Of a DNA stretch of 40,670 nucleotides, positions 1,972 through 40,670 are shown one piece after another. The notes beneath the pieces are model-generated. The model had not been told where the DNA came from and did no database searches. It saw only the letters and a program-made list of their open reading frames with translations. Position numbers and translations under genes: made by a program. The stretch's first letter is position 1; every line of letters starts with the position of its first letter. Origin of the DNA: a virus; IMG/VR virus record IMGVR_UViG_3300030521_000004, positions 1 to 40,670 of that record; one strand, 5' to 3'.

Positions 1972-3828
1972 TTACGGGCTGGAGATGTTATAGTCCTGGT
2001 ACAGGATCGAAATCGAGACGTAGACGAAATCCTTGTTAAAGCTGGTGAGTGTCGCCCCCATGATCTCACCATAGGTCTGCGCCGGGCCTCGGCTGATGAC
2101 GTAGCCAGTGACGACGAAGAATATGTTCTGAAAGAGCGAGTTCTGAAATTGCAGGATGCCGCCCGTGCTGTTCACGAAGGTCAGCACACCAGCGCCGCCG
2201 AGCGGCACCTGAATCGGCACGTTCTCAGTATCGATCTGGAACGTCGTCATCAGCGGGTCGCCGACGAAGTTATTGAAGACCTGCAGATAAGCCGCCAGAG
2301 ATTGCTTGGTGACGATGTTGCCGCTGCCGGTCCAGAGCTTGGTCTGCAGCCACTTCTTGAGCGCGCTGGAAGCCGTCGCGTACATCGGGAACAGGGCCGT
2401 GGTGGTATAGCCCCATGCGGTGATGTTTGAGTTCAGCTCCTGCAGCGCGATTGCGGTCGGGTTCGAGCCCTGCGAACCGACAAACCATTTCGTGCCATCC
2501 CAGAGGCACATGTACCGGCGCAACGTCGCGTCCACCGGATCATTCGACTTCACCAGCAGCATGTAGCACTTGACGCCGTAGAGCGTCATCGCGGCAGCGC
2601 TCGGCGTGAACGTGGTAAAATCCGCATTGGCAAAGATGCCGTCGAGCTGGGGCGAGACTTTCTCCGCCGCACCGCCATAGAGCGCGTAGACGCCGGATGA
2701 ATTGGGGAAGACCAGCGCGCGGCCGAAAGGCTGGACCGCGTCGCGCCATTGCGTGCCGACCTGCGGGTCAACGTTTGAGTTGTTGAACGTCGTCGTGGCC
2801 GGCGACCCGCTGGTGTTGACGTTCGAGATGACGTTGATCGAGGAGTCGCCCCAGTAGTAGAGGAACCCGTTCGATTGCCTGAGAGCCACCACGCGGTAGC
2901 GCAGGAACGAGTCAGCCGCCTGGAATGAGCCACCGCCGTTCGCGGTAGAGAAGTCGCCGACATTGTTCGGCGCGCTGAATGTGATCGTGGTCGGACTGGC
3001 AGCCGGGGCCCCGATCCAGATCCGGCCGCTGTAGACTTCGATGCAAAGCCCGGAGACACCAAACGGCATAAGCTGCACGGTCGCGGTCGCGGGCGTCGTG
3101 AAGCCACCGCCGGTAAACGCCAGAGTCACCGTCTCGCCGATCTTATACCCGGTGCCGGGGTTGGTGATCTGCACCGAGGTGACCGAGCCATTCGTTACTG
3201 TCGCGGTCGCTGTGGCCCCGGAGCCGGAGCCGCCGGAGAACCCCACGGTCGGAGCGCTGGTATAGCCGGCGCCGGCCGCTGTGATGGTGACCTGCGGCTG
3301 CAGCGAGCCCGCACCGAACAGCGACGTGCCGTCCCAGATGAAATATCCGTTCGTGGCACCGAGGACCGAGTCATCAACCACGATCAGGAGATACTTGGAC
3401 CCCCATTGGCAGCAGCCTGGCGTGAAACTGGCCGTGCAGCGGAACGTATTTGCCGTGGCCGTGATGGTGGTCGTGGCGCCATCGGATTGGCGCACCTGCA
3501 CGGCCGTACCGTTGTCCAGGAAAACGGCCCAGTAGGATACCGCGGCGAGATTGAAGGGGAACGAGAGGACGATGGTTCGCCCAACGCCCGGTGTGTAGAT
3601 CGATGCACCATTGTCATAGAGCGCCCGCAGGTTGCCGTCCCCGATGGGGATCATGTTTTCCAGCCAAGCGAACTCGTTATCGTCAATGCTGGTGCGCTTG
3701 GCTTTCGTATTGAGCGTGCCGAACTTTTCCAGAATCAGCCGCTGCGACGAAGACTGCGGCGTTTGGCCGGCAGCGGGTAGCCCGCCGCGCGCCTGGCCCG
3801 GGTCGCTCTGCCCGCCGTCCGGCGTCAT
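1972..3828 (-). CDS. large tail (nozzle / tail-tube-B-like) virion protein, 618 aa
   Basis: Track ORF 1972..3921 trimmed to ATG 3828, which overlaps the upstream TGA as ATGA. Carries GxGY modules. Size and position fit a podovirus nozzle protein. Confidence 0.55.
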   Translation of the reverse strand: MTPDGGQSDPGQARGGLPAAGQTPQSSSQRLILEKFGTLNTKAKRTSIDDNEFAWLENMIPIGDGNLRALYDNGASIYTPGVGRTIVLSFPFNLAAVSYWAVFLDNGTAVQVRQSDGATTTITATANTFRCTASFTPGCCQWGSKYLLIVVDDSVLGATNGYFIWDGTSLFGAGSLQPQVTITAAGAGYTSAPTVGFSGGSGSGATATATVTNGSVTSVQITNPGTGYKIGETVTLAFTGGGFTTPATATVQLMPFGVSGLCIEVYSGRIWIGAPAASPTTITFSAPNNVGDFSTANGGGSFQAADSFLRYRVVALRQSNGFLYYWGDSSINVISNVNTSGSPATTTFNNSNVDPQVGTQWRDAVQPFGRALVFPNSSGVYALYGGAAEKVSPQLDGIFANADFTTFTPSAAAMTLYGVKCYMLLVKSNDPVDATLRRYMCLWDGTKWFVGSQGSNPTAIALQELNSNITAWGYTTTALFPMYATASSALKKWLQTKLWTGSGNIVTKQSLAAYLQVFNNFVGDPLMTTFQIDTENVPIQVPLGGAGVLTFVNSTGGILQFQNSLFQNIFFVVTGYVISRGPAQTYGEIMGATLTSFNKDFVYVSISILYQDYNISSP

Positions 3829-4523
3829 GCCGAGGCCACCGGGCTGCCGTAGAACCCAGGCACCATGATCTGATTCGAGAATGCAGTCCCGCGCTGCATG
3901 AACTTCACGAACTCCGCCCACATCGCCTGCGCGTCGGCCGGGCGCTGCGCGTTGAGATACGCCTTATAGGCCGCATAGAACGGAATAGCGTCGGTCCAGG
4001 GGTAGGGGATCGCCTCGGGCGAGCTATCGCTCGTGAGCACAGATGGCAGGCAGTAGCAGTCCCAGTCCATGGAAAATGCGCCGCTCGGAATCGGCCAGAC
4101 ATAGACCGAGCCGCGGGCGCCCTGCGAGTATTGTGCCCAAACGGTCGGGTAGCTCTCGATCCCGACGTTATAGGAGCGCAGGTACGCTTGGAAGGCACTC
4201 CAGGCCATCTGATCGAGCACCGGCTTTAGCGTAGTGCCTTGATTCACGGCGATCGTAATCACGCCCATGATGCTATCGACGCCGGGGAAATTCGCCTGGA
4301 TGACCGGATTGATGGTGGAGAAGTTGTAGACTTCCTGCCCGAGCACGGTCTGATTCTGGCTAGGGTTTAGACTCGGCGGCAAAACGCGAACGCACATCGC
4401 CTCAGCAGCGATCTGTCGGCGACCCTCGTTGATGTAACCGACCAGATCCGTCTGCGTATAGAAGACCGCATTCGGATCATGCAGCAGAAGCTGGGTGCTG
4501 GTGATATAGGCAGTCAGGGCCAA
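3825..4523 (-). CDS. virion structural protein, head-tail adaptor candidate, 232 aa
   Basis: TTG start at 4523 with AAGGAG 9 nt upstream; first in-frame ATG is 42 codons downstream; lies between head and tail genes. Confidence 0.55.
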   Translation of the reverse strand: MALTAYITSTQLLLHDPNAVFYTQTDLVGYINEGRRQIAAEAMCVRVLPPSLNPSQNQTVLGQEVYNFSTINPVIQANFPGVDSIMGVITIAVNQGTTLKPVLDQMAWSAFQAYLRSYNVGIESYPTVWAQYSQGARGSVYVWPIPSGAFSMDWDCYCLPSVLTSDSSPEAIPYPWTDAIPFYAAYKAYLNAQRPADAQAMWAEFVKFMQRGTAFSNQIMVPGFYGSPVASA

Positions 4524-5763: not shown

Positions 5764-6786
5764 TTACCAAGCGCCGCCGGTAATGCCGGTGATCTGCCCG
5801 CCGCTCGCCGGCTTGGTGCAAACCGGCTCAAGGACGGTGATCAAAACGCCAACATTGGCGATCTGCAGGTTCGGGATGGCGCTGTAGAAGCCGGAGAACG
5901 CGAAATCCGCATCCTCGGAGATGTACATCGCCAGATATTTCGAGTTGATGAGGTAGGCCGTGCCCTTGGGGCAGAACGGATCGGCGAAAATCGGCGTGTC
6001 GCCCAGCATCAGGCCGCGGAAGCCGGCGTTGATCACATCGTCCTTGCCGTAGCGCGAGCCCGGCGACGTGTTGAACTGCTCGACGCCCATGAAATCGGTC
6101 ATCAGGGTCGTCCAATCCTGGAACGACATGACGCAGAAATCGGGGGCCTCGCCGCCGGCATTGGAGGTGACGTGCACCAGTTCCTTGATGAAGGCGATGC
6201 GGGTCAGGATGGCACCCGCCGAGGTCTTCAGATAGGACTTCCAGAACGCGTTTCCGGCGGTCGAGCGGTTGATGCCGCCGTAGGTCGTCACGTTCGTGCC
6301 GTCGTCATAAGCTTCCGGCAGGCCGTTGATGACTTGGCCCCCGGGTGCCGCCGAATTGTTGGTGAACAGCGAGGTCGAGACGGTCTGCACCCAGACGGTC
6401 TTTGCGTCAACCATGCGGGCCTCGAGCAGTGGAATCACCACCTCGCTCGACTGAATGATGGCTTCCATGCCCATGAACGGGATCGGAACCACGCCGAGCT
6501 TGAGATTGAACTCGGCATTCTGCGCCGCGGTCTGAACGCTCGGCTGCGGAAATACGCCGGAGTAGTCGGACCATGAGAAGCTGACGAAGCTCGACCCCTG
6601 GACCGGAACCGTGATCTGGCTTACGCCGCCCTTGGCGCGCTGGCCGTTGCGGAGCAGGAGCGACATGAGCGGAGTCGCCTGATAAATCTGCACCACCATC
6701 TTGGGGATGAAGGCGCGGCGCGTGACCGCTTGAAGTTCGGATCCAATTGCACCGCTCGGAACGATTCCGTTACCCAAAACCGGCAT
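5764..6786 (-). CDS. major capsid protein, 340 aa
   Basis: Size and position downstream of portal and scaffold; AAGGA RBS; ordinary globular composition. Call rests mainly on synteny. Confidence 0.7.
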   Translation of the reverse strand: MPVLGNGIVPSGAIGSELQAVTRRAFIPKMVVQIYQATPLMSLLLRNGQRAKGGVSQITVPVQGSSFVSFSWSDYSGVFPQPSVQTAAQNAEFNLKLGVVPIPFMGMEAIIQSSEVVIPLLEARMVDAKTVWVQTVSTSLFTNNSAAPGGQVINGLPEAYDDGTNVTTYGGINRSTAGNAFWKSYLKTSAGAILTRIAFIKELVHVTSNAGGEAPDFCVMSFQDWTTLMTDFMGVEQFNTSPGSRYGKDDVINAGFRGLMLGDTPIFADPFCPKGTAYLINSKYLAMYISEDADFAFSGFYSAIPNLQIANVGVLITVLEPVCTKPASGGQITGITGGAW

Positions 6787-6807: not shown

Positions 6808-7254
6808 TTAGCATAGACACGCCAGCCCCGAAACTGCTTCGGATGGAGTGTATTGCTGTACATCGAATCCATGGTCGCGCAGGAAAGTTGCGACGTGCTC
6901 AATCTTGTCTGAAACACGTTGGCCCTTGCCGTGACGGGATGACCACAGCTCCAAATTTTCAACCCGGTTGTCATTCCGGATGCCATTTCTGTGATGCACT
7001 GTTTCATCGGTCGTCAGTTTGCGCCCGAGATGGCGCTCCATGACCTGCCGATGTTCCTGGAATTGCTTCCCGCCCTTTTGGTGGACCACATATCCATTCT
7101 TGTCGATAAAACCAGTTCTCTGGCCTTCGTCAGCACATGCTTTTGAGCAGAACTTCTGTCGATATCGATAGCCGCCACACTGCTGCATGGGCACAGGGTA
7201 TGCCCGTTTACAAAACAAACAGTCTTGGTACGGCTGTGGCGCACGCTTTCCCAT
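6808..7254 (-). CDS. HNH homing endonuclease, 148 aa
   Basis: Motif [35 protein letters not shown] plus an N-terminal Cys cluster; visibly lower GC than the flanking genes. Confidence 0.85.
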
Positions 7255-11097: not shown

Positions 11098-11330
11098 GCC
11101 GGGACCCTCGTCTCTGACCTAGGCCCGGTGTAATTCTTCCGCCAGTGTCCGACGTGCCAGTAGTGGCAGAACTTGCAGCGATAGACCTGCAGGTTCTTCA
11201 CGCCACGTGGGTCTGATTTCTTCTCCACCAAGGACGCGAGTTGCATGCCGGCCGACACGATGGAGCCGTGCTTTTTCTTCTTGCCGCACTGGCGGTCGGC
11301 CTGACCGTGCTCGACTCTCACCTCGATCAC
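11094..11330 (-). CDS. small Cys/His zinc-binding protein, 78 aa
   Basis: GTG 11330 overlaps the terL TGA as GTGA. Motif C-x6-H ... YRCKFCHYWHVGH. Track ORF 11094..11531 extends spuriously into terL. Confidence 0.5.
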   Translation of the reverse strand: MIEVRVEHGQADRQCGKKKKHGSIVSAGMQLASLVEKKSDPRGVKNLQVYRCKFCHYWHVGHWRKNYTGPRSETRVPA

Positions 11331-13204
11331 CCATTCCCCAGATAGTACGGATTGGCCCACATCCGGCGGTCTTCCATCTCGGTGCGCTGGATCTCGCGTT
11401 GCCGGAAAAAGTCCGTGATGATGTGCCCGTGCAAGGTCTTCGCGCGCCCCGATTCCTCGTTGGCTTCCATCTCGGCCTGCGTCACTTGGAGATAGTTCAT
11501 CTGGTTGGCGATGAGGCCGGGCCGCATCCAATCATACCACGCCTTGTTCGCCAGCGCAGTGGCGAAAACCCGGTCATCCTTGCCCCGGCCGGCGGCCTCG
11601 ATCGAATCGCCGTCCTGGATGACCTTCGACATCTCCTCCAGGAGCGGCATCGACCGAACCCGGAGGATCTTGGTCGCGTAGGCGTCGCGGAGCTGATTCA
11701 GGATCAGGGTCTTGTTCTCGCTGTTGGTCTTCCAGTTCTGCACATACCCGGCGCGGCCAGGGCTATCCGGCCGGTTCCAGAGGTACCAGCGCACGTTATC
11801 GAAGATCGACAGGAGCACACCTTTCTCACCGTCTCTGGCGGCCGAGAGGGCTCCGGCGTCCAGCAAGTCCCGGAGGTGCCGCAGCTCCTGCACGATGGCG
11901 CCGCCTGGGCCGGTGATCTCGAGATTCACCATGCAGTTCCGGTAGACGCCGCAGAGATGCGCCAGTACCCAGGCAATCTGGTAGGTCTCCGGGTTATCCG
12001 TCGCGTACTCGGCCACCTGCACCATGGCGTCGGCAAAGCAGCGCCATATTTCGATGGCGTGCCGGTCCTTGTGCTCGGAGCGGCCAAACGCCGGATCAAC
12101 GCCGATCGCATAGACGCCGTTCACATGCGGCTCCTCCCAGACCCGAAGGTCGGCCAGATCCGCGCGGGTCACCTGCTCGATATCGGTCGCAAGGAAGTCG
12201 GCGCCGAGGTGGTAGCGGTAGGCGCGGTACGGCGCCTCGGACGTGAACTGCATATCCGAGCTGAGCTGCTTCAGCGGGAAGAAGCTCTGCCCGGTCGCAA
12301 CAAACGCCTCGTCCTCGGTCCATGGGTAGGACTGCGCCATCGCGGTCTCTGACATGCTGGACGCGGTGAAGCGGTGCCAGGCGACCTGCGCGGACTTCAG
12401 TTTCACGCCGTACTTATCGCGGACCTTGGCGTATTTCTCTTTCTCCTCGTCGGTCAGCGAGCCGTCCCAATATTCCTTGTAAATCTTCTTGCCCTGCGGC
12501 ATGGCGTCGGTCGAGTAGACCTCTTTGGCCCACCAGCCGATGAAGAAGAATTTCTGGGTAATCGGGTTGTCCTTGGCGCGGCGGACCATGTCGTACCACA
12601 TGTTGAAGCCGCGAGCGGTGGACTCGTAGATGTAAAGCCGGTTCGGATGCTGGATCGCCAGCGTGTTCAGGAAGTCGTCAATCGCGTCCGGGTCGCCGTA
12701 GTTGCTGACCTCCGTCGCGTGTAGGAAGTTGTACGCGCGCGAGACCGCGACACCGCCCTTGCGCTTCTTCTTGCCGGCTACGACATAGTCCAGCGTCGAG
12801 CCGTTGTTGAGCACCAGCCCGTTGCGATTCTCGGTCTTGATGCCGACGCGCAGGCCCTTGGGCAGCGAGTTGATGCAGCGGGAGAGGATGGTGCGGAATT
12901 TCTCGCGGTTCGATTCATCGTCGGTCAGAAGGCAGCCTTGCGTGCCTTCGTAAACCGAGAGCCAGAAGATATCGATCGGCAGAACGATGGTGGTGATGCC
13001 GAGCTGCCGGGCTTTCAGGCATTTGAAATCTCGAACGTTGCGTTCGAGACCCTCACATATTTCCGAGAGAAAGAGGTTTTGAGCGCCGTAGATGTTCTCT
13101 TCGGTGAGCTTCGTTATGCCGGTCTCTTTCGAGTCGATCGACATATGCGAGATATATTCGCGGAACAGTTTCTCCCAACGCTGGGTCGTGGGGGTGCGGG
13201 GCAT
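11327..13204 (-). CDS. terL: terminase large subunit, 625 aa
   Basis: Terminase-type Walker A (CLKARQLGITT), acidic Walker-B-like segments, size, and position upstream of portal. Confidence 0.88.
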   Translation of the reverse strand: MPRTPTTQRWEKLFREYISHMSIDSKETGITKLTEENIYGAQNLFLSEICEGLERNVRDFKCLKARQLGITTIVLPIDIFWLSVYEGTQGCLLTDDESNREKFRTILSRCINSLPKGLRVGIKTENRNGLVLNNGSTLDYVVAGKKKRKGGVAVSRAYNFLHATEVSNYGDPDAIDDFLNTLAIQHPNRLYIYESTARGFNMWYDMVRRAKDNPITQKFFFIGWWAKEVYSTDAMPQGKKIYKEYWDGSLTDEEKEKYAKVRDKYGVKLKSAQVAWHRFTASSMSETAMAQSYPWTEDEAFVATGQSFFPLKQLSSDMQFTSEAPYRAYRYHLGADFLATDIEQVTRADLADLRVWEEPHVNGVYAIGVDPAFGRSEHKDRHAIEIWRCFADAMVQVAEYATDNPETYQIAWVLAHLCGVYRNCMVNLEITGPGGAIVQELRHLRDLLDAGALSAARDGEKGVLLSIFDNVRWYLWNRPDSPGRAGYVQNWKTNSENKTLILNQLRDAYATKILRVRSMPLLEEMSKVIQDGDSIEAAGRGKDDRVFATALANKAWYDWMRPGLIANQMNYLQVTQAEMEANEESGRAKTLHGHIITDFFRQREIQRTEMEDRRMWANPYYLGNG

Positions 13205-14327: not shown

Positions 14328-14544
14328 CCAAACTCCTATCGCCGCAAGTATCACCAAGGGTCACCAGAACCACACTACGCTGAATTACGGTCACAGGCAA
14401 GCTCTGGGCGAACGGCGACTCTCCACGTACATAACCAGCCAATATCAAACACTTAGTCAGACACAGAATTTCTTCTGGGGGAGGATTGAAGTGGGTGCTT
14501 ACATTCACATCGATCGCGGGCCACCGCTCCCCAGCGTCTTGCGT

Positions 14545-14760
14545 TCAGTCTGGCACCCCGGCCTTGCGCTGCCGGCGCCGCACCCTACCGATCGTAGCGT
14601 ACGCGACGCTCACCCCCTGTCGGTGCAGCCACATGTACAGTTCGTCATCTGATTGATCCGATTGTCTAATGTGTCTCACCATGTCGTCGGTGAGCTTCCT
14701 CGACCGCGTGTGTGGACGGTAAGGACCTCGCTTGACGCCTGGTTTGGAGCCGCCTGCCAT
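14545..14760 (-). CDS. small basic HTH-like DNA-binding protein, 71 aa; first gene of the late block
   Basis: Track ORF (TTG 14796) trimmed to ATG 14760; the TTG codon is itself the -35 hexamer of a candidate promoter. Confidence 0.55.
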   Translation of the reverse strand: MAGGSKPGVKRGPYRPHTRSRKLTDDMVRHIRQSDQSDDELYMWLHRQGVSVAYATIGRVRRRQRKAGVPD

Positions 14761-14796
14761 GGCGTGAATAATGGCTCCAGCACCGGAGCGCGTCAA
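14761..14796 (-). promoter_or_regulatory. candidate sigma70-type promoter TTGACG-N17-CATTAT, 7 nt from ATG 14760 (leaderless geometry)
   Basis: Hexamers read on the minus strand at 14796-14791 and 14773-14768. Confidence 0.4.
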
Positions 14797-15062
14797 GCAG
14801 TGAATTAAGTGCGCGCGTAATTCTTATTATGTAATATCGTCATTCATAACGAAATCAACATCTTAGACTGTGATTTACCCTAATCTGGCTCTGGTCTAGC
14901 CGTTTTACGCACGATTCTGATCCAGTTTTACGCAAACGTGGCCGATTTGGTGACGTCCCGTCTCACTGTGTGACACGGCGTTTGGTGCATGTTGCAGCGC
15001 AGTAGTGAGGCGAAACTTGGCGGTCGGGCAGTGCGTGTCGCATCTCAATTAACCAGAATTCA

Positions 15063-15247
15063 GTTAACTCTCGGACAGATTTGGACAGAAATTCGGACAT
15101 CTTCGGACAGCTACGGACAAGTGTTAACGTCTCGGACATCCTTTTTATGGACAGACATGGACAGGGCTATATATAGCCTGTCCTGTCCTGTCCAAAATGT
15201 CGGACAAGTGTTAACAAACGAAAGAAAGTTACGAATGTCTCGTTAAC
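15063..15247. repeat. Iteron-like array: 12 GGACA/TGTCC units, 4 GTTAAC sites, a 15-bp direct repeat and a 25-bp palindrome
   Basis: GGACA starts at 15073, 15083, 15095, 15105, 15115, 15134, 15149, 15159, 15202. TGTCC starts at 15179, 15184, 15189. CGGACAAGTGTTAAC at 15114-15128 and 15201-15215. Confidence 0.9.
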
Positions 15248-16335
15248 CATGAGTAATCCATCCAGGACCCGATCATCCCGACCTTGGTGAGATCGTCCAC
15301 ACCGCGCTTGAAATTGCGGTCTTTGGACCCGGGCTTGGCACCGCCGATATCGCGGGCTCTATATTCGTCCCGCCACATGGCGTTCTTGGCGACAATGACG
15401 TTGGTCGGGATGTGGCTGCTCGGGGGTGCGGGCTCACCATTCGCGGCGAGGACATTCTGCAGGCAGCGCAGGGCGAGATGGGCAGAGGGGCGCAATTTAT
15501 CGATGGTTTTGCGCTTGTCTTTGGCGGCCGGCACGTCGGGATCCGGGGTGTACTCTTCAACAATGCAGCTCGTGACTGGATCACCGCGGTCGTTTTTGCC
15601 CAGCTCGACGGGGTAGAGCTTGAAGGTGAATTCGCCTGCAACCTCAAGATCGCGCTGTTTGCTGACCGTGGCGATGCTCATGGATCCAGTGCCGTTAGCT
15701 TGCTTGCTGACCTCTATTTCCGTGTCGATCGCTCCGCGGAGGCTGCTATGGCCGCGCATTCCCTTGGCCGTGTCCTTGCCGCAATGGTGGATCAACATCA
15801 CATGCGCCTGGGTCTCTTGGCGGATGAAGTCAACGTTTGAGACAAGCGCCGTCATGTCCTCTGGGCTGTTCTCATTGCCGCCAGGCATGGCACGGCTAAG
15901 CGTGTCCACAATCACCATCCTGACCGGCTCATCGATGCGGTCGGCGGCGTCAAGAATTGCGTGAATCATGGATCTAACATCGCCTTCAGGATCCATGAGA
16001 TTGAGAGTGGAAGTCACAATCCCGAATGGGATCCTGGCCGAGTCTTCCTTGCTGATTCCGTGGTGCTGGACATAGGCGGCAATGCGATTCTTAGCACCGT
16101 ACCCGCCTTCCAGCGCGCAGTAGATCACACCACCTTGCATCACCTCGCGGCCAAAGAATGGCGCCCCGCGGGCGACGCTTAACCCGAGTTCCAGCGCGAA
16201 GAACGTTTTACCGCAATTGGGCTCGCCATAGATGACGCTGGCCGTGCCGTTGCCGAGCAGGCCGGACACGAAATCGTGCGTCTCCAGTGACGCTGAAATG
16301 TCATGAAGCCAAATAAGCTCAATATGTTGGGGCAT
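15229..16335 (-). CDS. RecA-fold replicative helicase, RepA/AAA_25-like, 368 aa
   Basis: Walker A GEPNCGKT, Walker-B-like VRMVIVDTLS, and the IHHCGKD segment typical of RepA-like helicases. Confidence 0.75.
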   Translation of the reverse strand: MPQHIELIWLHDISASLETHDFVSGLLGNGTASVIYGEPNCGKTFFALELGLSVARGAPFFGREVMQGGVIYCALEGGYGAKNRIAAYVQHHGISKEDSARIPFGIVTSTLNLMDPEGDVRSMIHAILDAADRIDEPVRMVIVDTLSRAMPGGNENSPEDMTALVSNVDFIRQETQAHVMLIHHCGKDTAKGMRGHSSLRGAIDTEIEVSKQANGTGSMSIATVSKQRDLEVAGEFTFKLYPVELGKNDRGDPVTSCIVEEYTPDPDVPAAKDKRKTIDKLRPSAHLALRCLQNVLAANGEPAPPSSHIPTNVIVAKNAMWRDEYRARDIGGAKPGSKDRNFKRGVDDLTKVGMIGSWMDYSWLTRHS

Positions 16336-17326: not shown

Positions 17327-18232
17327 TCAGCCACCGCGGCCTGCCACAAGCCCGCTTTTGGCTTCCATCAATGCATCAGTAATCTTCCGGTTGACCTCGC
17401 CGAGCCGAGCGATCGCCGACTCCGGCTTGCCAGCCTGCACATACTTGGTGTGAACGACGTTGAAGAACTCGCTGTTGCTCTCCCAGAAGCCGCCTTTGTC
17501 CGCCGCCTCGGAGAACGCAAGTTCGAGGCCGGTCAGGTAGTCGCTAAGCTTGTCGTATGGGATCGACTCGCCGTCTCCGGTGATCAGCTCGAAGGGGGCA
17601 GGTTTCACTGGCTGGTCAGGTTCCGGGACGGAAGGCTCGATAGGCGCAGCCAACGGCGGTAGATCGCTGACTTGCGCCCGATAAGTCTCAACACGGCTCT
17701 TTGGGGGCTCAAAGTCCTGCACTTCCTCCGGCGTGTACATACCGCTTGTCGAAGACGGGAACACCGTCTTGCATCCTTCGGAGACGCAGCGCGCGCGGAG
17801 CATCTGGCGCGAGTATTTCGTCCACATCTCCTTGCCGCCGAGGCCGGCTTTCTTGGCCCTGGCGAGATCCCAGTCGCATCGAAACGCGCCGCCTTGCGGG
17901 TGCGAGAACGTCGCATCGGCTCTGGCATCGGTCAGCTCGTGCCATTCGACCTTGCCGCCGGAGCGCTGGAAATCGCGGAGCATCGCCTCGGCCTTCTTGC
18001 TCGGGCGCCCCTGGATAATGTCATAGTCACGCGCGGCGATCATCGGGTGCAGCCCCTCGGCCTGGGCGAGCATCATTAGCGCGAATGCTTGCTCGGGCTG
18101 CTTCATTCCGAACAGCCCTGACTTCGCAACAGCTTGCGCCATGCGCCATATGTCGTCAAAGCTGGCTGGCGACGGCGGCACTACGATAGGAGTATCCGCG
18201 CGGTTAACGACCTGCAATTGATTCGGCTGCAT
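17327..18232 (-). CDS. RecT-like single-strand annealing protein, 301 aa
   Basis: Trimmed to ATG 18232 (GAGGGA RBS). The MWTKYSRQMLRARCVSEGCKTVFP segment resembles the conserved RecT core. Adjacent to a nuclease gene. Confidence 0.6.
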   Translation of the reverse strand: MQPNQLQVVNRADTPIVVPPSPASFDDIWRMAQAVAKSGLFGMKQPEQAFALMMLAQAEGLHPMIAARDYDIIQGRPSKKAEAMLRDFQRSGGKVEWHELTDARADATFSHPQGGAFRCDWDLARAKKAGLGGKEMWTKYSRQMLRARCVSEGCKTVFPSSTSGMYTPEEVQDFEPPKSRVETYRAQVSDLPPLAAPIEPSVPEPDQPVKPAPFELITGDGESIPYDKLSDYLTGLELAFSEAADKGGFWESNSEFFNVVHTKYVQAGKPESAIARLGEVNRKITDALMEAKSGLVAGRGG

Positions 18233-18602
18233 CGTCTCTATCCCTCTGTTCCAGCAGCTCGACATAAGCCGCCTCGGTTATCGGCCGCCCCACACACTCC
18301 GGCCATGCATCTTCAATCTGTGCCGGGTGCCCATCGATCTCGCATTGCCAGAGCGGGGAGCGATCGCCCTCCTCGCCGGTCTCCGGATCTCGCGACGGCG
18401 CAAACCAGATGCGGATCGGCATCCATCGCTTGACTCGCGCTCCAGCCTGGTCCGGCACCATCCACGGCTTTTCGTAGAAGCCGGCGATCGGCGGCCATGT
18501 CTCGACTGCGGCTATGCCGTCACGGCGGAGCGCATACATGCTGCGCTGAGGCTCGCCGACATCGCGTGGCCCGACAGGACGCGGCGTGTAGAGTTCACGC
18601 AT
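18204..18602 (-). CDS. hypothetical protein, 132 aa
   Basis: Track ORF 18204..18905 trimmed to ATG 18602 with AAGGAGG RBS 7 nt upstream. Confidence 0.6.
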   Translation of the reverse strand: MRELYTPRPVGPRDVGEPQRSMYALRRDGIAAVETWPPIAGFYEKPWMVPDQAGARVKRWMPIRIWFAPSRDPETGEEGDRSPLWQCEIDGHPAQIEDAWPECVGRPITEAAYVELLEQRDRDDAAESIAGR

Positions 18603-39996: not shown

Positions 39997-40670
39997 TCAT
40001 AGGGTCTGCCACGGCCATGCGATCGTGTTGCCGCCGCTTATGATCGTGCCACCGCCCTGCGATTTCTGCCCCGAGGCGTTCACGCCCGGGCCGCTCGCGG
40101 TGGCAGCCGCCGGCGGTGCCTGTAGCGGCGTAGAGCCGGTGGTGGCCGTTGCGGTCGGCGTAGCGCTGACGAGCGGCGCAGCGCCTGGACCGCCAGTGCC
40201 GGAAGCATTGTGCGGCACCTCTCCACCGCCAGCAGGCGCGCCGGGCGCGCCGCCAGCACCCGGGAGCGGCGTCGAGCCCGGCCCCCCGAGCACCACGTCC
40301 GGACCGCCGAGCGCGTGGTAGCCCTGCCCCATGAGCGCGCCAATGCCAGGGATACCAGCCGCCATCCCAGCGACACCGCCCACGGCTGCGGCCGGGTTGA
40401 CACCATAGTGGTAGTCGCCGCCGACGTAGGATGAGGGCTGAGTCGGGCTTGGCGCCACTGAGCCGAAACCCAATGGCGTAACCATGTCGCGCAGCCGGTC
40501 CATGAATGAGCGGTTGCGGTAGGCGTCCAGCGCGTTTGAGAACGTGGCGGAAGGCGCGGTCGTCCCGGCTTCCGGCCCCGCGGTGAAGGTGTCGGTCGGT
40601 CCGAACTGCGCGCCCGTGTCGTTCGCCGTAGCGGTGACGTTCTGTCGGCCAAAGGATGGGTCGCCGGGAT
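39997..40670 (-). CDS. 3' (C-terminal) portion of the junction-spanning gene (333 aa on the circle: 455->1 joined to 40543->39997)
   Basis: Track ORF 39997..40503 has no upstream stop to the window end. The frame is continuous with 1..455 through the overlap. Confidence 0.65.
   Translation of the reverse strand, partial: PGDPSFGRQNVTATANDTGAQFGPTDTFTAGPEAGTTAPSATFSNALDAYRNRSFMDRLRDMVTPLGFGSVAPSPTQPSSYVGGDYHYGVNPAAAVGGVAGMAAGIPGIGALMGQGYHALGGPDVVLGGPGSTPLPGAGGAPGAPAGGGEVPHNASGTGGPGAAPLVSATPTATATTGSTPLQAPPAAATASGPGVNASGQKSQGGGTIISGGNTIAWPWQTL
40544..40670. repeat. Right copy of exact 127-bp end overlap (identical to 1-127)
   Basis: Base-by-base comparison of the two window ends. Confidence 0.95.

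Follow-up and report, generated by a model that had tools for sequence, protein, structure and literature searches.

A GGACA Iteron Array Behind a RepA-like Helicase Gene Is the Probable Replication Origin of a ~40.5-kb Phage

Introduction

The 40,670-nucleotide IMG/VR virus record IMGVR_UViG_3300030521_000004, referred to over its full length as the window, carries an array of short GGACA repeats directly behind the gene for a RepA-like helicase. Our analysis indicates that this array is probably the phage replication origin and that the adjacent helicase is its own, self-loading initiator. The narrower proposal, in which the helicase's C-terminal domain (CTD) has its cognate site in the array, seems somewhat more probable. 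We infer binding, melting, self-loading, and origin activity at this site. A first-pass annotation of the window had offered three readings of the array, as an origin beside the RepA-like helicase, a pac site, or an operator for an HTH protein, and had held that nothing in the sequence decides among them. Comparison with related loci discriminates among them: inheritance of the array follows the helicase, specifically its C-terminal winged helix, and not the 71-aa HTH protein, the terminase, or any downstream gene. The first of the three readings is thereby supported, and the other two are disfavored.

Results and Discussion

The array begins 23 nt past the helicase stop codon (15229-15231), and its 12 pentamers span 23-156 nt after the stop. 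On the plus strand, six direct GGACA copies make up a distal array (starts at 15073, 15083, 15095, 15105, 15115, and 15134; span 15073..15138), all oriented toward the core. Two more plus-strand copies start at 15149 and 15159 in the left arm of the core, three back-to-back TGTCC copies start at 15179, 15184, and 15189, and a proximal GGACA iteron, I12 (15202..15206, plus strand), lies between the core and the helicase stop. The first five GGACA copies are spaced by 10, 12, 10, and 10 bp and are helically phased, as the first-pass annotation had noted; its coordinates for GGACA, TGTCC, GTTAAC, and a repeated 15-mer were all reproduced exactly. The gap between the helicase stop and the next gene is also AT-richer than its surroundings, as had been described, with a GC fraction of 0.46 (0.43 in the array) versus 0.61 for the whole window.

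The two ends of the window share an identical 127 bp, which indicates a circular assembly and a complete ~40.5-kb phage genome. The pentamer array is the sole cluster of its kind in that genome. GGACA/TGTCC occurs 74 times in the window, with 62 sites outside the array (~0.0015 per bp in ~40.5 kb). At this density, ~0.2 pentamers are expected in the 134 bp that hold 12, in agreement with the earlier estimate of fewer than one by chance. A Poisson estimate from the window counts gives P ~1e-17 for the clustering, and every other 150-bp segment contains three copies or fewer.

The proposed initiator-helicase (15229..16335, minus strand; 368 aa) is a RepA-like SF4 protein with a RecA fold. It matches Pfam AAA_25 (E = 5.5e-35) and PHROG primase/helicase families, and an hmmsearch profile comparison with RSF1010 RepA (1g8y) gives E = 1e-10 over aa 44-205. 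The AF2 model (pLDDT 92) finds its best Foldseek matches in RSF1010 RepA (1nlf/1olo/1g8y, E = 8e-12) and DnaB. Residues G42-K43-T44 and D144, among others, are invariant in the helicase alignment, and the protein has the RepA hexameric helicase core with Walker A and B motifs and an arginine finger. Beyond the end of RSF1010 RepA, where the motor ends, the window helicase continues for ~100 residues. AF2 models fold these extra residues as helix-strand-helix-helix-hairpin, that is, as a winged helix (codons 283-364, 15244..15489, minus strand; H1-b-H2-H3-b-b), which we propose to be the iteron-specificity domain. All Foldseek matches of the CTD model are winged-helix structures (CRP/FNR, E2F-DP, histone H1, ORC/MCM WH), at probabilities of 0.75-0.97 and weak E values of 0.06-0.5. 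The predicted recognition helix, H3 (codons 335-351, PGSKDRNFKRGVDDLTK), is encoded at 15283..15333 on the minus strand. The helicase is the probable reader of the iterons, a point that had previously been missed.

A profile of the CTD gathers 4,110 clusters at 50% identity. Among the best matches listed, the domain lies mostly at or near the C-terminus of proteins of ~350-440 or ~620-750 aa. Primase-fused helicases are frequent among the relatives, with either a Prim-Pol (AEP-type, PF09250) or a DnaG-type domain in front of the helicase; the window protein is the helicase-plus-reader form. A tblastn search of the window with six kinds of relatives' N-terminal primase domain found nothing, and Pfam, PHROGs, and NCBIfam searches of ~40 ORFs recognized no primase, polymerase, integrase, or Par protein. 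The ORFs that were recognized are the helicase, RecT, an HNH endonuclease, the major head protein, structural proteins, and a weak TerL only.

To place the array in its wider context, 80 IMG/VR loci were fetched via helicase homology (35-51% identity); the hosts of the helicase relatives are mainly Alphaproteobacteria and their phages. When 30 window proteins around the array were compared with these loci, a homologue was found for the helicase only. Most high-GC relatives nevertheless carry 8-13 copies of a short word directly after the helicase stop, in a constant layout of direct copies, a GC-armed palindrome with an AT centre, and inverted copies. The first two ORFs downstream of the relatives' arrays fall into 46 unrelated families. 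Because the array is kept while all other neighbors differ, the helicase and the array behave as one module. The arm asymmetry of the window (3 proximal, 8 distal) is opposite to that of most relatives. In marine low-GC relatives with a similar C-terminus, a compact array was not found, so the placement after the stop is not universal for the helicase family. A blastn search of the region against GenBank phages gave no match.

The closest relative, L115, has a helicase 76% identical to that of the window. Between the two, iteron positions are identical at 56/60 and spacer positions at 28/54 (Fisher p = 4e-7). That the iterons are kept while the spacers drift points to purifying selection on the pentamers and speaks against functionless repeats arising by chance or slippage. 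Together with a partition centromere (parS/parC-like), that explanation is barely credible. Short phased repeat arrays do occur in type Ib/II plasmid centromeres, but the genome yielded no ParA/ParB/ParM/ParR-like protein, and an architecture conserved in dozens of lineages argues against either possibility.

The hexamer GTTAAC is present four times in the region, as first described, and six times in the 40,670 bp of the window. GTTAAC-1 (15063..15068) marks the array's distal edge. GTTAAC-2 (15123) is joined to iteron I5 in the first copy of the 15-mer CGGACAAGTGTTAAC (15114..15128, plus strand) and GTTAAC-3 (15210) to I12 in the second (15201..15215, plus strand); the 15-mer is found exactly twice, starting at 15114 and 15201, as had been stated. 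GTTAAC-4 (15242..15247) lies within the helicase's last codons (W-L-T). Three of the sites are conserved in L115, with GTTAAC-4 among those kept and GTTAAC-1 not, and the composite GTTAAC-N3-TGTCC is retained with a different N3. Among the relatives, GTTAAC is found only in the window and L115; in the loci compared, these sites are lineage-specific and no general feature of the system. CtrA (TTAA-N7-TTAA), IHF, and CcrM (GANTC) were considered as explanations of GTTAAC and rejected by eye for misfits of spacing or consensus. An exact search of IMG/VR with the 15-mer gave single chance matches only, and a motif search for the composite GTTAAC-N3-TGTCC-N5-TGTCC gave zero. A search with GGACAGGACAGGACAGG returned 94 matches, one or two per contig.

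Read in helicase orientation, the elements follow one another as GTTAAC in the last codons, the stop, GTTAAC-N3-TGTCC, three contiguous GGACA, and GGCTATATATAGCC. Beyond GGCTATATATAGCC come TGTCC, a degenerate copy, two more TGTCC, and GTTAAC-N3-TGTCC, and then four further TGTCC at 10-12-bp spacing and a last GTTAAC. Three contiguous GGACA are thus separated by GGCTATATATAGCC from eight TGTCC, and the iterons that flank the core face each other. The core itself is an imperfect 45-bp dyad (15149..15193) with three head-to-head pentamers per arm, which we propose as the melting and loading site. Its left part reads GGACA-GACAT-GGACA-GGGCTATA and its right part TATAGCC-TGTCC-TGTCC-TGTCC. Between the arms lies the palindrome GGCTATATATAGCC (15165-15178), whose AT centre TATATATA (15168-15175) is the window's extended version of a CTWWAG core, C-TATATATA-G. 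This centre is flanked by GGACA (15149 and 15159) and TGTCC (15179, 15184, and 15189), with at least two opposed iterons on each side. As single-stranded DNA, the dyad folds at -13.9 kcal/mol (z = -5.1), and convergent GGACA..TGTCC pairs occur only here, genome-wide.

L115 has GGTCTATAGACC where the window has GGCTATATATAGCC; the arm changes are compensatory, and the symmetry is kept. Of 34 dereplicated loci, 26 have a CTWWAG-centred palindrome within 420 bp past the helicase stop, regardless of the iteron word, and none occurs elsewhere in ~300 kb of flanks of those loci. In this set of sequences, the palindrome is the conserved core of the system, a point that had also escaped the first-pass annotation. 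An Rfam search of 14500-15500 gave no match at E <= 1, no intrinsic-terminator-like site was found, and no DnaA-box consensus was visible by eye in 14800-15250. The GC-skew profile tracks gene orientation and carries no origin signal.

A key question is whether the iteron word follows the putative reader. The word differs between lineages: CGGGACA is the commonest, and CCGGACA, GGAGACA, CATCACA, TCCGACA, CATACC, GCGAAnCA, CGCAACA, CGTGAC, and CCACGC also occur. The H3 motif (K/R)KKAFxRA pairs with CGGGACA in divergent backgrounds, including Planctomycetota and Burkholderiales MAGs, whereas SRNGWSDGKRA pairs with TCCGACA, SRVQFNRIKKA with GCGAAnCA, and RERTLWHRF with CATCACAC. Across 32 dereplicated loci, H3 identity is 0.48 in same-word pairs versus 0.22 in other pairs. 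In a logistic prediction of shared words, the coefficients are +16.5 for H3 and -2.7 for the ATPase domain (permutation p = 2e-4). As judged from these alignments, the iteron word tracks the recognition helix and not the ATPase domain.

The same association is seen in a natural swap. Loci L043/44/45/34 carry CGGGACA, whereas L040/31/47/30 carry TGTCGGA, in flanks with DNA identities of ~83-94% upstream and 89-92% downstream (74% for L034/L030). The L034/L030 pair is more diverged (74-83%) than L043/44/45 versus L040/31/47 (~87-94%). The swap divergence is confined to a stretch that begins ~97 codons before the helicase stop and runs to roughly where the next gene starts. Inside this cassette, every iteron has been exchanged, but where the iterons lie, how they point, and the central ATCCCTTTAGGGAT have stayed the same. 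As a natural experiment, this swap is nearly decisive. Because the CTD and the array adjoin physically, simple linkage could account for some of their co-variation. Two observations argue against this explanation: the swap has abrupt edges, and the iterons do not co-vary with the ATPase domain or the downstream gene, both of which are just as close. A protein of ~180 aa that is often encoded after the array was considered as the iteron reader and rejected, as it is ~90% identical across the iteron swap; it has no Pfam match. L043 also has extra iterons inside the CTD coding region.

These results bear on a proposed role in packaging, with the array as a pac or cosB-like site for the small terminase or a downstream HTH protein, for which the candidate is the 71-aa ORF (14545-14760). 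The array is upstream of a block that leads to the weak TerL match (11327-13204), HTH_32 matches the 71-aa ORF faintly (E = 0.009), and cosB of phage lambda is likewise a multisite array upstream of a small-terminase gene. The 71-aa ORF, TerL, and the other neighbors are, however, missing from the 80 loci that keep the array. In the relatives, the array follows the helicase and not packaging genes, the downstream genes are diverse, and the iteron word goes with the helicase CTD. The contig of one relative, L015, does end 191 bp past the helicase stop, but the relatives' contig ends are scattered, and L015 is the single case of a contig end at the array.

Two cultured relatives repeat the design. 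In Rhizobium phage 16-3, p101 is immediately followed by 15 CGTGACA/TGTCACG sites together with CACTCCTTTAGGAGTG. The cohesive end annotated at 60186-60195 lies 3.6 kb away from this homologous array (56250-56620), and terS (46-510) lies ~4 kb away. Roseobacter phage CRP-831 carries TTATACA iterons around AAACCCTTTAGGGTTT after its "helicase RepA family protein", within the replication module. Because the array is inherited with the helicase CTD, apart from packaging genes, and given the distances from cos and terS in 16-3, a packaging function is very improbable.

Another possibility is that the array is a multisite operator or enhancer of the downstream operon, bound by the 71-aa or 55-aa HTH protein or by the helicase CTD in a regulatory capacity. 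Its position between two gene blocks would suit such a role, as would the occurrence of the next gene directly after the array in some relatives. The GTTAAC palindromes could suit a dimeric HTH protein; only the window and L115 have them, and both also have the 71-aa ORF. The only promoter-like site, however, a sigma-70-like TTGACG-17-CATTAT (14796..14768) beside the 71-aa ORF, is 267 bp from the array. It belongs to a promoter/operator block of the next operon (14768..14934, minus strand) that lies 130-270 bp from the array, outside the proposed origin. This block has conserved elements of its own, TGCGTAAAA twice and TTACATAATA; it contains TATTATGTAA (14825-14834) and two copies of GTTTTACGCA (14902-14911 and 14925-14934), conserved in L115 and L116. 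The small HTH proteins are not kept alongside the array, the iteron word goes with the helicase CTD, and the convergent layout around the AT-centred palindrome is conserved across unrelated downstream genes. An operator is therefore an improbable reading of the array, though less so than a packaging site.

The co-variation evidence points to cognate binding, not to initiation. The CTD might thus bind the iterons while the origin lies elsewhere, with the array serving in sequestering or handcuffing (copy control, incompatibility), as a polar fork barrier, or as a crr-like auxiliary site. In phage P4, alpha binds crr as well as ori, and the extra iterons in L043 would fit a site of this kind. 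We nonetheless consider this arrangement unlikely. The array is the only iteron cluster in the complete genome, the searches turned up no further origin-like element or initiator gene there, and an AT-centred palindrome with convergent iterons is the layout of functional initiator-helicase origins.

The origin reading gains from comparison with systems in which a helicase reads its own origin. In SaPI origins, 6-12 penta- or hexanucleotide iterons directly follow the rep gene; the centre is AT-rich, at least two iterons per side point in opposite directions, and a winged helix in the Rep CTD reads them (PMC9371898). As in the proposed window system, the SaPI helicase doubles as a self-loading initiator via a C-terminal winged helix, and the iterons lie 3' of the ORF. 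Iteron word and CTD co-vary between elements in both cases, and some proteins are primase fusions (SaPI PriRep5) while others stand alone. The window shares with the SaPI type the C-terminal winged helix, 6-12 iterons directly 3', an AT-rich centre between opposed iterons, and, on comparative evidence, an iteron-CTD match. It does not share the AAA+ SF3/SF6 motor. SaPI Reps are AAA+ helicases of SF3 or SF6 that run 3'-5', whereas the window helicase is a RecA-fold SF4 protein related to RSF1010 RepA and lactococcal phage GP46, both of which move in the 5'-3' direction (PMC8965321). No sequence relationship was detectable between the window helicase and SaPI Reps. Because the motor is a RecA-fold SF4 enzyme, the window system has the same working design as the SaPI type but is no member of it by descent. 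Unlike SaPIs, which are staphylococcal satellites, the helicase family of the window has a near-universal CTWWAG-centred, GC-armed palindrome as its core and is hosted mainly by Alphaproteobacteria and their phages.

In P4 gp-alpha, one polypeptide combines a helicase with a C-terminal winged helix that reads short repeated origin words (PMC4889955). The likeness lies in the union of origin recognition and helicase in one chain, and the difference in the P4 motor, an SF3 helicase with a DnaG-type primase. P4 has octamer iterons, divided between ori and crr, and these are not known to abut the gene's stop. In SV40, GAGGC pentanucleotides lie head-to-head around a central palindrome by an AT tract, the helicase OBD reads them, and two hexamers form. 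The SV40 T antigen and papillomavirus E1 are SF3 enzymes of eukaryotic viruses with an OBD of a different fold N-terminal to the motor, and the likeness is an analogy only; the OBD-helicase fusion is described for the SV40/papillomavirus class (PMC4889955).

By descent, the window motor goes with RepA of RSF1010 (IncQ), which has a homologous helicase core. The RSF1010 origin is described as uniting iterons with an inverted repeat (ssiA/ssiB) and an AT-rich segment (PMC8567376); the window array also combines these three elements. RSF1010 RepA, however, has no DNA-reading C-terminal domain, whereas the window helicase has its reader fused. RSF1010 uses a separate RepC on 20-bp direct iterons and a separate primase, RepB', whereas the window system has 5-8-bp iterons in both orientations, and no further replication protein was recognized in the genome. 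In the primase-fused relatives, one chain would cover the roles of RepB', RepA, and RepC. Nor does the locus resemble a classical plasmid iteron origin (Rep_3/RepA/pi/TrfA), in which a dedicated WH-WH Rep initiator binds direct iterons of 17-22 bp and DnaA boxes are usually present, as its iterons are 5 bp long and no Rep_3-type protein was found.

These comparisons allow us to propose a mechanism, with its steps drawn by analogy from SaPI Rep, P4 alpha, and SV40 T antigen. The recognition helix of the helicase winged helix (aa ~335-351) would read the pentamer GGACA, and the winged-helix domains of the helicase subunits would dock on the iterons. Docking would gather helicase subunits on both flanks of the AT-centred palindrome, which would then melt or extrude. 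Hexamers could close around the single strands with no separate loader, and replication would start there. Because no primase or polymerase was seen in the genome, host enzymes would be recruited.

Conclusions

The array behind the helicase gene is best explained as an origin with its own initiator-helicase. We see about an even chance that the locus belongs to a large class of self-loading initiator-helicases with SF4 (RepA-like) motors, comprising at least 4,000 clusters at 50% identity. In such a class, a small, swappable winged helix at the C-terminus would read a 5-8-bp word specific to the lineage, and the iterons would converge on a near-universal CTWWAG hairpin core directly behind the gene's stop. 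Under that broader proposal, a Prim-Pol or DnaG-type fusion together with ~150-350 bp of DNA would be a complete portable replicon, and specificity could be readable, perhaps rewritable, from about ten residues of one helix.

SF4 (DnaB/RepA-like) bacterial-type helicases are normally thought to require a separate initiator, and usually a loader. A 2016 survey of viral replication modules finds origin-binding fusions mainly with SF3 helicases (PMC4889955), and origin-reading domains fused to a helicase are described mainly for SF3 and SF6 enzymes (PMC4889955; PMC9371898). AAA_25 proteins appear in a 2022 paper as lacking a described function (PMC8965321). Our search of the openly accessible literature found no account of RepA-like helicases that read an origin, nor one of an origin built in this way.

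If the proposal is correct, the position of the helicase stop would predict the origin, just behind it, for thousands of uncultured phages and prophages from Alphaproteobacteria, Planctomycetota, and other groups. The pairs of helix motif and iteron word would constitute a natural protein-DNA recognition table. Testable origin predictions would follow for roseophages and for a classical model, Rhizobium phage 16-3 (56.25-56.62 kb), and a minimal one-protein replicon could serve as a vector module in bacteria that are hard to transform.

Results and Discussion

The first 127 bp of the window are identical to the last (1-127 and 40544-40670), the signature of a circular assembly, and the window therefore represents a complete phage genome of ~40.5 kb. 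The protein database entry for protein P0001 gives the same contig as its source, with a length of 40,685 bp. Across the whole genome, no gene product could be recognized as a primase, DNA polymerase, integrase, repressor or partition protein, and most ORFs between 20.8 and 40.5 kb have no Pfam or PHROGs match. The only other recognizable DNA-metabolism gene near the helicase encodes RecT (17327-18265). An HNH endonuclease gene (6808-7254, minus strand; PHROG E = 4e-20) has an unusual placement inside the structural block, immediately upstream of the major head protein gene (5764-6786).

Between the iteron array and the 71-aa ORF, the non-coding DNA holds a second conserved block. It contains two copies of GTTTTACGCA 23 bp apart (14902-14911 and 14925-14934), TATTATGTAA (14825-14834) and a promoter-like site, TTGACG-17-CATTAT (14768-14796). 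The closest relative, L115, keeps the block (14768-14934), and L116 keeps part of it. It probably serves the next operon as its promoter/operator and is separate from the proposed origin.

The largest array found, at about 3800-4100 in the Burkholderiales MAG locus L127, has 17 CGGGA-containing iterons (consensus CGGGACA) within some 360 bp surrounding the stop of the helicase gene and is paired with a variant recognition helix, ARKKSWHRT. Loci L043, L044 and L045 carry extra GGGACA/TGTCCC copies some 150-200 bp before the stop codon, in the stretch of the gene that codes for the C-terminal domain (L043:6870-6935; alignment A1 columns 134-195). These copies form a second small iteron cluster, which lies inside the cassette exchanged in the iteron swap. 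Marine low-GC relatives (37-40% GC) lack a compact array after the helicase (L054:4150-4400, L063:6208-6460) and carry nothing beyond scattered 8-mers (GCATCTGA/TCAGATGC), which occur in both orientations at 40-130-bp spacing and are conserved between two loci.

A family of ~180-190-aa proteins is encoded immediately 3' of the array in nine dereplicated lineages with seven different iteron words (L034:6816-7350; L028, L029, L030, L039, L046, L053 and L117; and L135:3726-4304, CRP831_7). A Pfam search with this family gave no match. A role as the iteron reader was ruled out because the protein keeps ~90% identity across the iteron swap. The family may act alongside the replication module as a conserved partner.

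The same arrangement, iterons with a CCTTTAGG palindrome, lies directly 3' of the RepA-like primase-helicase gene in Rhizobium phage 16-3 (L134:3555-3921, corresponding to NC_011103 56245-56611) and Roseobacter phage CRP-831 (L135:3551-3701; PV211014). Neither the NC_011103 nor the PV211014 record annotates an origin at this region. Both phages are cultured, and they thus provide experimental systems that are ready to use.
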